From Candidatus Asgardarchaeum abyssi (GTDB taxonomy: Archaea; Asgardarchaeota; Asgardarchaeia; Asgardarchaeales; Asgardarchaeaceae), in the NCBI GenBank assembly GCA_040225955.1, contig JBECUL010000034.1, positions 1 through 23,179 of the forward strand: a stretch of 23,179 nt of DNA. The letters are read 5' to 3'. Of this stretch, positions 20,354 through 23,179 are shown one piece after another. Made by a program: the position numbers and the translations under genes. Below the pieces are notes generated by a model. The model worked only from the letters and a program-made list of their open reading frames with translations, was not told the DNA's origin and did no database searches. Every line of letters begins with the position of its first letter. Position 1 is the first letter of the stretch.

Positions 20354-22066
20354 TTAAGATTTCTTTCTTACTAAGAATAGAACTACTGAAACTATTATGG
20401 CTGCGGCTATGCCTCCTACCAAGTACAGAATTTCATATTCTATAGCTTGTACAGTTACCAGGATAGTAGTAGTATTTGTGTTTCCCAATTTATCTTTGAC
20501 TGTTATATATATTACATGTTCTCCTGGTATTAAGTTAGTAAAGGTGTATTGGGTGCTTTTATTAACATTTATCCATTCATTATCATCAAGTCTTATTTCA
20601 TAATGTGATACACCGCTACCAATGTCGTATCCCTCCCAACGTATAGTCATTGTTGTATTTCTAGTGATCGTATTATTCAAAGGAGAAAGAATTTTGATCC
20701 ATGGAGGGACCATATCTACCTTCACTGATATAACTTCTGAGAAGTTCTGAATTGCTTCAATGTATTGTGATTCAATCTCTGTAACAGGAAGTTCCTCAAT
20801 ACCATATACGTACTTCTCGAAAAATTCTGTGAAATTATAATTTGAGAATGTGTTTAGCTCCTCTAGTAGGTCTTCGGTTGATATAAGCTTTGGAGCCCAA
20901 TTATCATCAGTTGTGATATTATATTTTCTATAGAGGTGTCTCATAAAATCATTTAATGTTTTATTATCACTCTCAATTAGTATCTTATTGATAAGATATG
21001 CAACTAAGCCTCCTTTACAGTAATATGTATATGCATATTGTGTACCAAAGTATACAGGTAGATCGACAAGAGGTTTATCTAAATTGGTACCCAGCATAGT
21101 GTCTCGATAATAAGATATATCATGTGTTAACATACTAATTGTTTCTGAAAGATTCAACTGAATAATTCCATAGAAATGTTCAAATCCCTCAAGTATCCAC
21201 TTATCTGAATCCTCAGTCTCTGGATCAAAAGATTCAAAGTTTCTCTCAATTTTTAGTATTCCTCCGATCCAAGCGTGTCCTATTTCATGACTTAATCTTT
21301 CACCAAAACCTACTTGTACTATATCATCACCATATTGTAATCCTAACTCATCTTCACTAATTGTTGATGCATCATGGCGTATAACTATTCTGTATTCATC
21401 TAATGGAAAACTGCGATATACTGTCCAATGTCGATGGAAGTATACAAAGACATAATTTGCAAATGTACGCATGAAACTTAAACTAGGCGAAGGAGATAAA
21501 TTTTCATCAAATGCTACTGTAACATTTACACCATGCAAATAATATCTAAAAGTAGTAAATTTTTTAGTATCATACTGTAAGTAATCCTCAGGGAAGAAAT
21601 TATATTTAACTTGTTTGTAGTAAGTCCAATTGTACTTCGGTGCTCCTGGATAATTAGTATCAACCGGTGTAACAACAGTTTTTATTTCACTGTGCGCTAC
21701 TACAGTCCCATCTTTATGAATTACCACTATTTCATAACTGTATTGTGTTCCAAATTCAACCCAAGTATCAGTAAAATTATTAATTCTCGATGGAAGAATA
21801 GCAATAACACTTTCAAAAACTATGAAGTGCCGGATTACTTTTATAAACAAACTGGAGCTATTGAATGAAAGTTTCCAATTTAGTGAAACTGAATATGGTG
21901 ATAACGCAACAACGTTAAATTGAAGAATCTCTACGGTAGCTTTACTGCTTAGTAGGAGAGAGTCCCTCTTGTATGTATAAACTGAACTATGCGTTGTTTC
22001 TATAGAGATACTATTAAGTAGCAATAGAAATACTAAAATATAACATATAAGGTTCTTAAATCTCAT
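20354..22066 (-). CDS. Secreted, membrane-anchored zinc metallopeptidase (gluzincin) with FN3 and Ig-like domains
   Basis: Signal peptide; FN3-like SVSLNW...FTDTWVEFGTQYSYEI; HEIGHAW and WILEGF motifs; YCKG; DMVPP...SP Ig-like domain; C-terminal TM followed by RKKS. Confidence 0.88.
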   Translation of the reverse strand: MRFKNLICYILVFLLLLNSISIETTHSSVYTYKRDSLLLSSKATVEILQFNVVALSPYSVSLNWKLSFNSSSLFIKVIRHFIVFESVIAILPSRINNFTDTWVEFGTQYSYEIVVIHKDGTVVAHSEIKTVVTPVDTNYPGAPKYNWTYYKQVKYNFFPEDYLQYDTKKFTTFRYYLHGVNVTVAFDENLSPSPSLSFMRTFANYVFVYFHRHWTVYRSFPLDEYRIVIRHDASTISEDELGLQYGDDIVQVGFGERLSHEIGHAWIGGILKIERNFESFDPETEDSDKWILEGFEHFYGIIQLNLSETISMLTHDISYYRDTMLGTNLDKPLVDLPVYFGTQYAYTYYCKGGLVAYLINKILIESDNKTLNDFMRHLYRKYNITTDDNWAPKLISTEDLLEELNTFSNYNFTEFFEKYVYGIEELPVTEIESQYIEAIQNFSEVISVKVDMVPPWIKILSPLNNTITRNTTMTIRWEGYDIGSGVSHYEIRLDDNEWINVNKSTQYTFTNLIPGEHVIYITVKDKLGNTNTTTILVTVQAIEYEILYLVGGIAAAIIVSVVLFLVRKKS

Positions 22067-22188
22067 ATTTTCGTTATCCTCTTCAATATGGATAGATAAA
22101 GCTATATAGTGTTCCTCTTTAAAAACTTAACTAAAGTAATCTCAAATATCTCTAAGTGAAAAATATGTAACATAGTATAATGGTAAAA

Positions 22189-22430
22189 ATGGTTGAGCAT
22201 ACAACTATCAGAACATCCTTAAAAATTAAAAGAAAATTAGAAGCCTTTGTTAGAAAAATCTGTGCAAAAAGCTTAGCTAAGGCTATAAAAAAGATTAAAT
22301 CCCTGAGAGAGTGTATATAATAGATTTTTGGGAAACTTATACATTATCTTGGACAACTATAAATGAAATCACAAAAGAAGCAATAAGCTTGTTTACTAAA
22401 CATTGGAAGGTTAAAAACCTAAAAATTTGA
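22189..22430 (+). pseudogene. Decayed RHH antitoxin-like gene
   Basis: MVEHTTIRTSLKIKRKLE...KSLAKAIKK, then stops at 22318-22323, with a possible continuation in another frame. Confidence 0.35.
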
Positions 22431-22589
22431 AATGTATTATGTGTTAGGGAGCAAAAATGAATTAATTATAAAATTTTCCCCCTAACACTTTTTTACAAAA
22501 CTTAAGTCTAAATGACTATATAAATTGTATATGCAAATTGTGGAGTTATGATTATGAGTAAAATAGATTCGCATATCAATAAGAAACCA

Positions 22590-22739
22590 TTATCGACCTT
22601 CTCGTTCCCTTTTTCTATGTTTTTCACCACTATTTTTCATTTTATTGTCTTTAATTATGGTATCAAGAATGTTTTTTGAAGCTATTAATAAATCATCAAG
22701 AATTTCTTTAGCCTTTCTTTTCCTTTTTGATAGAGACAT
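22590..22739 (-). CDS. 49-aa basic hypothetical peptide or gene remnant
   Basis: MSLSKRKRKAKEILDDLLIASKNILDTIIKDNKMKNSGEKHRKREREGR*, preceded by GGTG. Confidence 0.3.
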   Translation of the reverse strand: MSLSKRKRKAKEILDDLLIASKNILDTIIKDNKMKNSGEKHRKREREGR

Positions 22740-22861
22740 TAGAAACACCATCTGCTTAAATTTTCGTTTCCTAATATTATAAACATTTTAAGATTGATAC
22801 TTTCTGATATGATAAAGTCATCGTGGTAATAAAATAAGATTTATTAAAAGTATATCGACTA

Positions 22862-22880
22862 TGAAAAAATAAGCGTAAAA
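22862..22880 (-). terminator. Oligo-U terminator of the putative ncRNA
   Basis: The minus strand reads UUUUACGCUUAUUUUUUCA directly after the closing stem. Confidence 0.55.
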
Positions 22881-23044
22881 GCATGGACAAGTAATTTAGC
22901 AGACCCAACTCAGTAGATCCTATCTGTTCCTAGATTGAACCTACACAGCAGCATGGTCTGTTTCCAGACAGTTACTGTGTAGGCCAATCTATTCCCAGAT
23001 TGAAACCACGAAAGATGAGTCTTTTGCCTTACTTGTCCTTTGCC
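22881..23044 (-). ncRNA. Putative ~165-nt rod-like structured RNA of unknown family
   Basis: Nested inverted repeats span the whole element. G-U pairs favour the minus strand, which also carries a GAAA tetraloop. There is no ORF, GC is higher than in the flanks, and the element has an upstream TATA box and a downstream U-tract. Confidence 0.75.
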
Positions 23045-23067
23045 TATTATATATATGTATGTCTAAC

Positions 23068-23080
23068 TATTTAAACTTTG
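23068..23080 (-). promoter_or_regulatory. BRE/TATA promoter for the putative ncRNA
   Basis: Minus strand CAAAG-TTTAAATA, ending ~24 nt before the first paired G (23044/23043). Confidence 0.6.
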
Positions 23081-23114
23081 TGTTTTTTTAGGTTAAAGGG
23101 CGCTCGATTAAAAG

Positions 23115-23179
23115 TTAGTGAATTATCCTTAAATTGAGTTTTACAGCCGATTCTACTCGATCACCACGCAAAATGACAC
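23115..23179 (-). CDS. Possible 3' end of a gene entering from the right edge
   Basis: The longest open minus-strand frame reads VILRGDRVESAVKLNLRIIH*. Confidence 0.3.
   Translation of the reverse strand, partial: VILRGDRVESAVKLNLRIIH

Follow-up and report, generated by a model that had tools for sequence, protein, structure and literature searches.

A Structured RNA Gene with a Diverged Paralog in Candidatus Asgardarchaeum abyssi and Its Possible Processing into a Circular Rod

Genomic Setting of the Locus

The window, i.e., the whole stretch of 23,179 nt that was analyzed, corresponds to the entire contig C34 of a 2.6-Mb MAG of Candidatus Asgardarchaeum abyssi (33% G+C, 93% complete). Its class is represented by no other genome in the collection that we searched. 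Neighbors in the window include genes for an Lrp/TRASH regulator, a CopA-type ATPase, and Ser/Thr kinases, and the best named relatives of a neighboring protein belong to Candidatus Baldrarchaeia (65%) and Thorarchaeota (39%). Parts of the stretch were present in public runs, which comprise marine-sediment and hydrothermal metagenomes. The feature of interest, a hairpin-forming segment on the minus strand, is located between an IS end on the one side and a small reading frame together with the gene for a 570-aa Ig-like protein on the other side. The coordinates of all features are given in Table 1.

The IS end belongs to a multi-copy IS-like repeat with further copies at C96:1–84, C70:1510–1590, C73:957–1000, C6:56415–56454, and C18:33212–33278. 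In metagenome contigs, this repeat occurs at 3–5 times the depth of its flanks, and the flanks are unlike. Frames within the C70 copy were not matched by Pfam. The contig ends at position 23179 because of the multi-copy repeat at this place. The IS is inserted approximately 10 nt upstream of the BRE and leaves the promoter described below intact. On the other side of the hairpin, a comparison with a contig from another sample (ENA contig L052) revealed a strain breakpoint. L052 is 99.8% identical to window positions 21636–22821 and continues with 334 nt of unrelated sequence, which is absent from the genome analyzed here; the hairpin in the window is therefore part of a strain-variable segment. 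Further inside the window, positions 22439–22494 hold a partly palindromic repeat of ~55 nt, of which the genome contains at least a dozen copies of ~80% identity (on C107, C5, C38, C72, C18, C28, C8, C39, C11, and C73); it is also found on other metagenome contigs.

Table 1. Features of the RNA locus and its surroundings in the window. Cut sites, transcript, and excised segment are predictions.
Feature	Position	Strand	Basis
End of a multi-copy IS-like repeat, outside the RNA	23099–23179	+	Sharp boundaries, unlike flanks among copies
BRE-like purine stretch and TATA box (TATA 23075–23068)	23068–23083	−	Near-identical in the paralog
Predicted primary transcript, ~166–182 nt, start ~23045/23044, end in either U-tract	22864–23045	−	Promoter spacing and oligo-T runs
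Further 5-bp basal helix	23045–23041 with 22883–22879	−	MFE fold
Lower stem, 5' strand (outer helix h of the BHB)	23029–23038, pairs with 22894–22885	−	MFE fold
BHB 5' half: central-helix strand 23028–23025, bulge AAA 23024–23022; predicted cut 23023/23022	23022–23028	−	Redrawn fold, both copies
BHB 3' half: central-helix strand 22901–22898, bulge AAA 22897–22895; predicted cut 22896/22895	22895–22901	−	Redrawn fold, both copies
Predicted excised segment, 127-nt rod, expected to be circularized; two tandem ~64-nt quasi-palindromic units	22896–23022	−	BHB geometry
Upper rod, bounded by a symmetric 4x4 GGAA/GGAA loop (22995–22992/22930–22927)	22927–22995	−	MFE fold
Apical 5-bp stem and GAAA tetraloop	22956–22969	−	MFE fold; central 12 nt identical in the paralog
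U-tracts after the last pair	22880–22877 and 22869–22864	−	
Strain breakpoint	22821/22822		L052 versus window (L052:334/335)

Fold and Expression Signals of the Minus Strand

The MFE fold of the minus strand from 23045 to 22879 is one imperfect hairpin that is paired from end to end. Its free energy of −81.8 kcal/mol lies far below that of 200 shuffled sequences (−46.2 ± 4.4 kcal/mol; z-value = −8.1), and the plus strand reaches only −57.7 kcal/mol. A previous reading of this DNA, made from the letters alone and referred to as the sequence-only reading, had described a series of helices on the minus strand, and every one of them is present in the fold, including the lower stem, the 4x4 loop, and the apical GAAA stem. 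[quoted passage not shown]

An archaeal promoter and a terminator had also been claimed for this strand. Both signals were recovered (TATA box and U-tracts, Table 1), and both are shared with a second copy of the gene. The TATA box ends 23 nt ahead of the first paired base. Motif type and spacing of TATA box and BRE are those found upstream of the tRNA genes and the SRP RNA gene of the same genome. From promoter spacing and oligo-T runs we infer the start and the end of the primary transcript given in Table 1.

A Diverged Paralog and Compensatory Base Changes

BLAST found the hairpin once in the genome, and a weak 83-nt match led to a diverged paralog at C73:3049–3273 with ~65–70% identity. 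The paralog shares a near-identical BRE/TATA box and initially transcribed region, an equal rod length, an identical 12-nt apical stem-loop with the GAAA loop, and the same closing motif, after which a U-tract is again present; the stems differ. It folds with −94.9 kcal/mol (z-value = −16), compared to −47.0 kcal/mol on the opposite strand. Searches with nhmmer and a covariance model identified these two loci and no others in the genome. The C73 copy lies between a gene for a GvpD/KaiC-like ATPase and a VapBC-like pair, and its flanks are unrelated to those of the window copy.

Alignment of the two copies, with the BHB drawn, revealed that 125 of 126 pair cells (63 pairs; 99.2%) are paired. 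Both partners were changed in 13 pairs, four of which belong to the lower stem, as opposed to zero to two pairs when the 3' partners were slid by 1–3 columns, and none of 500 shuffles reached this value; the underlying set of two diverged sequences and two near-identical variants is too small for a tree-aware test such as R-scape. RNAalifold, applied to the same two copies, counted 12 double-changed pairs among 58. Furthermore, the stems of both copies contain 24 G-U and no A-C among the 126 pair cells. A symmetric process acting on a DNA palindrome is expected to leave G-U and A-C equally often. Together with the 13 double-changed pairs, this bias demonstrates that the fold is selected on the minus strand, as the sequence-only reading had suggested from G-U wobbles and a GNRA tetraloop on this strand only. 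The two variants point in the same direction. A variant of 96% identity on metagenome contig X3 carries five substitutions at paired sites, of which four keep pairing on the minus strand, and the Logan contig L044, which represents another strain, contains the C73 copy, which differs there at a single position out of 187 nt (G-C to G-U). Pooled, five of these six substitutions keep pairing on the minus strand and only two of the six on the other strand.

Given fold, covariation, promoter, and terminator, the locus is very probably an RNA gene. The sequence-only reading had likewise proposed a structured ncRNA that is encoded on its own on the minus strand. This core claim is now strongly supported by the compensatory pairs, by the G-U bias, and by a paralog in which promoter, apical loop, and terminator recur. 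In contrast, the proposal that the GGAA/GGAA loop serves as a protein-binding site did not hold, since this loop is not kept; the paralog has AUAA/AAGU at this place, which is mostly paired, and the conserved irregularity is the basal BHB loop instead.

Three other explanations of the hairpin were weighed against these data. The hairpin is long, almost completely paired, and equipped with a promoter, and its stems differ between the paralogs; it could be a precursor that is diced into small guide RNAs in an miRNA- or siRNA-like manner. However, loops and apex are more conserved than the stems between the two copies, the arms lack convincing target matches in the genome, and domains of Piwi/Argonaute and RNase III proteins were not found in the 93%-complete genome (the same applies to the TROVE domain), which makes dicing highly improbable. 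The hairpin might also act in cis as a leader or terminator of its neighbors, e.g., as the 5' leader of a 53-codon frame at 22751–22590, which is on the same strand at a distance of 130 nt. We regard this as very unlikely, as two U-tracts separate hairpin and frame, strain L052 has the frame without the hairpin, and the frame has neither a counterpart beside the paralog nor a family match.

The third explanation is a function at the level of DNA or ssDNA, in which the hairpin would be a part of a mobile element, i.e., a transposon end, the hairpin of a replication origin, or a MITE. The window copy is only 55 nt away from the IS end and inside the strain-variable segment, IS fragments are located near the paralog as well, and G-T wobbles would also stabilize a hairpin of ssDNA. 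On contig C73, the segment 250–1158 is an insertion relative to strain L044. Approximately 210 nt upstream of the paralog's promoter (C73:2835–3042) are duplicated with ~75–80% identity at C73:748–956, i.e., 2 kb apart, and the duplicate ends exactly at an IS end. It might be the upstream flank that the window copy lacks; no target-site duplication fits. With another repeat end at C73:3395–3441, 130 nt downstream of the paralog (copies on C97, C63, C61, and C135), and the IS end beside the window copy, both RNA copies thus lie among fragments of mobile elements. A role as a DNA element is nevertheless improbable. There are only two copies with ~65–70% identity, and neither terminal inverted repeats nor target-site duplications were detected at the hairpin edges. 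The IS copies elsewhere have unrelated flanks, which argues that the hairpin is not part of the IS. In each copy, a conserved BRE/TATA box at promoter distance and a U-tract accompany the strand that folds best, and the paralog is syntenic in strain L044, i.e., it occupies the same chromosomal place in another strain.

Identity and Distribution of the RNA

We compared the whole window to Rfam 15, which gave no match at the gathering thresholds; at E ≤ 10, the hairpin region obtained one chance match only (E = 9.9). No known family was thus matched, in line with the earlier reading, in which the RNA was not recognized as a 5S, SRP, C/D, or H/ACA RNA. The genome has its own SRP RNA on C79 (193 bits), and the rod is fully paired. 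The RNA is not a 5S rRNA either, linear or permuted. A permuted 5S rRNA would be of a size similar to that of the predicted ring, but a 5S-like gene is located on C78, and the rod is symmetric rather than a three-way junction. The loose resemblance to 6S RNA that had been suggested was not confirmed, as the rod lacks a large central bubble and the 6S models of Rfam were unmatched. H/ACA RNA was rejected for the lack of a pseudouridylation pocket and for AUG or ACU, and not ANA, after the stem; for C/D box RNA, no RUGAUGA box could be read from the sequence. The basal loop is not a K-turn, since no GA follows the 3-nt bulge. A Y RNA, the partner of Ro60, is contradicted by the TROVE result given above and by the Rfam comparison.

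Candidates linked to mobile or defense elements were rejected as well. A retron or another RT-linked RNA, an IS110 bridge RNA, and a TnpB omega-RNA do not apply, as the downstream 570-aa gene encodes a Y_Y_Y/Ig-like protein and the hairpin lies beyond the IS boundary. With regard to a MITE, BLAST, nhmmer, and the covariance model agree on two loci, each with its own promoter and terminator; in view of this copy count and the hairpin edges described above, the MITE that the sequence-only reading had considered is rejected. Frames within the predicted ring are short and not conserved, which speaks against a conserved peptide. The genome contains large CRISPR arrays of three repeat types with ~50–100 repeats each (C19:12804–21329, C24:28509–32430, C27:14397–19881, and C144). 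The three repeat types share at most an 8-mer with the rod unit, so that the RNA is not a derivative of a CRISPR repeat.

Homologs were searched for in ~190 other Asgard genomes, in metagenome and viral contigs, and in loci syntenic for the neighboring genes, and none was found. The DNA search covered 40 relatives and returned no real homolog; the covariance model R1 found nothing real in 150 genomes of the phylum, in G151, or in 40 relatives of G151. A motif pattern gave seven matches on metagenome contigs and four on genome contigs, all of them chance by model score, and none on viral contigs. Loci syntenic for the 570-aa neighbor (homologs of 65–50% identity) and for the GvpD-like neighbor (55%) contained no such RNA. 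The search thus brought the paralog within the genome and no homolog outside the species. The RNA represents an undescribed, lineage-restricted family with two paralogs in this Asgard genome, and the family has so far been seen in one species only.

A Bulge-Helix-Bulge Motif at the Base of the Rod

In the RNAfold structure, the 10-bp lower stem at the base of the rod is followed by a 6x6 loop. For each copy, this loop has an alternative drawing as a BHB: above the lower helix, three bases bulge from the 3' strand, four base pairs form a central helix, and three bases bulge from the 5' strand before the upper helix begins. Every bulge position, six per copy, is an A. The central helix has four pairs in each copy (8/8 cells paired); one of them changed from G-C to A-U between the copies in a compensatory manner, and the X3 variant turns one G-U into A-U. 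The central helix is flanked by an outer helix of 10 bp (17 bp in the paralog) and an inner helix of 6 bp (4 bp, a mismatch, and further pairs in the paralog).

The canonical hBHBh' class, as defined in the preprint 10.64898/2026.10.13.758758, is recognized by the archaeal splicing endonuclease. Our RNA has the 3-4-3 layout, the flanking helices, and the polarity of this class, and the enzymes are encoded in the genome. An EndA domain is located at C8:5498–5758 (60.9 bits) and RtcB at C33:6582–7889 (594 bits). In the 5' to 3' direction, each strand runs through the central helix first and then through the bulge, which is the polarity of the introns in the genome's own tRNA-Met, tRNA-Pro, and tRNA-SeC (three match, none is reversed); these are the usable three among 16 intron calls by ARAGORN, which is unreliable for archaeal introns.

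Forcing the BHB into the fold raises the free energy of the window copy by 0.3 kcal/mol; three of its central pairs have an ensemble probability of ~0.55 and the fourth one of 0.27. For the paralog, the energetic cost amounts to 3.0 kcal/mol and the ensemble probability to ~0.02; its central helix is weak and consists of two G-U, one A-U, and one C-G pair. A loose BHB pattern has 3278 matches in this AT-rich genome. The motif alone is therefore without weight; it counts because it is conserved, shows a compensatory change, and is enclosed by long helices. From pair frequencies, we calculated a chance of ~1–3% for such a match in a loop of this size.

The main rival to circularization is a standalone ncRNA that remains a linear rod and is not an EndA substrate at all. 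The mature RNA would then be the ~170-nt hairpin, with the A-rich bulges as a hinge or protein site. All evidence for an RNA gene would fit a linear RNA equally well, BHB-like patterns are frequent by chance, and the paralog has a thermodynamically weak central helix. We nevertheless consider the linear RNA rather doubtful, though a serious contender, in view of the exact 3-4-3 geometry with the correct polarity, the six A bulge bases in both copies, the compensatory change in the central helix, the low estimate for a chance match, and the presence of other RNA genes in this lineage that are framed by BHB-type stems. Conversely, processing at the BHB into a 127-nt circular rod, which would make this RNA a new, narrow Asgard family of circular RNAs, is a prediction from sequence and fold to which we assign about an even chance.

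Build of the Predicted Ring and Proposed Pathway

The piece predicted to be excised at the BHB is 127 nt long in both paralogs despite indels, and its circular fold has a free energy of −54.6 kcal/mol. The 5' and 3' arms of the rod are not only complementary but also direct repeats of each other, with scores of 20 and 19 compared to 10 ± 2.7 in random hairpins of equal composition, and this direct repeat sits at the same place in both copies. The excised piece therefore consists of two tandem, quasi-palindromic units of ~64 nt. As a duplex, the rod has a two-fold pseudo-symmetry about a central internal loop, and the predicted ligation loop would resemble the apical loop. Two-fold symmetry is typical of sites for dimeric proteins. 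The tandem build was absent from the sequence-only reading, as were the C73 paralog, the BHB reading of the basal loop, and the IS end.

From these features, we infer the following course of transcription, cleavage, circularization, and function. Transcription would begin ~23 nt past the TATA box, counted from its 3' end, and stop in an oligo-U tract. The transcript of ~170 nt would fold end to end, its base forming the 10-bp outer helix, AAA, the 4-bp helix, AAA, and the 6-bp inner helix. EndA would cut each bulge between nucleotides 2 and 3. By joining the ends of the 127-nt excision product, RtcB would produce a covalently closed rod of two-fold pseudo-symmetry, i.e., a ring with two similar end loops formed by the GAAA-capped apex and the ligation junction. 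It would also join both short flanks, yielding an exon hairpin of ~45 nt. The ring would likely be the functional product. Being stable and resistant to exonucleases, it would most likely serve a dimeric RNA-binding protein as a scaffold or decoy. As the predicted ring junction has no counterpart in the DNA, the circularization claim is directly testable.

Other RNA Genes Framed by BHB-Type Stems

Among the pattern matches with AAA/AAA bulges, three are located in stable folds, which applies to the two rod copies and to a standalone RNA at C82:4877–4942 (minus strand). In the latter, the canonical BHB with AAA/AAA bulges is present in the MFE fold itself (z-value = −5.2), with GC-rich helices of 11 bp and 7 bp that enclose a C-rich payload of 65 nt. 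The C82 RNA has its own TATA-like box and a T-tract, and no match to it was found in Rfam. Processing at this BHB would yield a 65-nt ring.

A further case is located at C78:8475–8677 (minus strand), just upstream of tRNA-Trp. Here, we detected two adjacent sub-threshold matches to 5S rRNA (25.5 and 21 bits). By eye, the back half of the molecule is placed ahead of the front half, a tetraloop links the native ends, and all of this is enclosed by a 12-bp outer stem with a relaxed BHB. This is apparently a permuted 5S gene. Together, the C82 RNA and the framed 5S-like gene suggest that this lineage uses splicing-type stems around several RNA genes.

We therefore put forward a broader proposal, tentatively and with somewhat less than even confidence. 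The lineage may possess dedicated genes for ring RNAs, in which a promoter and a generic circularization cassette (outer stem and canonical AAA-bulge BHB) surround varied payloads, i.e., the viroid-like 127-nt rod described here and the 65-nt payload on C82. The products could persist as stable circular RNAs that serve the cell or are linked to mobile elements, e.g., as a decoy or scaffold for a dimeric protein, and they would belong to a wider, unrecognized class of EndA-made circular ncRNAs. To our knowledge, the archaeal rings made through a BHB are by-products (tRNA introns), processing intermediates (rRNA), or permuted universal RNAs (the SRP RNA of Thermoproteus). If the proposal holds true, the excised ring would be the apparent purpose of the gene and a rod of no known family, Asgard archaea, the closest prokaryotic relatives of eukaryotes, would use the tRNA-splicing machinery as a general route to stable circular ncRNAs, and these genes would be a natural counterpart to engineered BHB-based systems for circRNA expression.

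Comparison with Known Systems

Several known RNAs resemble the predicted ring in part. Viroid-like and retrozyme-type circular RNAs are likewise small, covalently closed, and highly paired rods of repeated units, as predicted here. In contrast to them, our RNA is encoded in DNA behind a cellular promoter, it has no ribozyme, cutting and joining are predicted to be carried out by protein enzymes, and there is no sign of replication. Bacterial 6S RNA is of similar size and also forms a rod by pairing of its 5' and 3' halves; unlike 6S RNA, however, the rod has no promoter-mimicking central bubble and no Rfam match, and it has an archaeal promoter and a BHB at its base.

With archaeal tRNA introns, pre-rRNA stems, and metazoan tricRNAs, our RNA shares the canonical hBHBh', its polarity, and the predicted positions of cleavage. 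The pieces excised from these substrates are commonly circular. It differs from all three by the lack of a host tRNA or rRNA, as the "exons" consist of a hairpin of ~45 nt only; the excised piece thus appears to be the purpose of the gene and not a by-product. A further parallel is the circular SRP RNA of Thermoproteus, which is made through a BHB (Plagens et al. 2015, PMC4731332). In either case, an archaeal ncRNA gene stands alone and its transcript has a BHB; cutting by the tRNA-splicing endonuclease and ligation into a functional ring, known from Thermoproteus, are predicted here. However, the SRP RNA is a permuted universal RNA with a known function, whereas the rod belongs to no known family and gives no sign of being a permuted known RNA. 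Within the Asgard archaea themselves, circular transcripts have been observed for 16S and 23S rRNA (PMC12918454).
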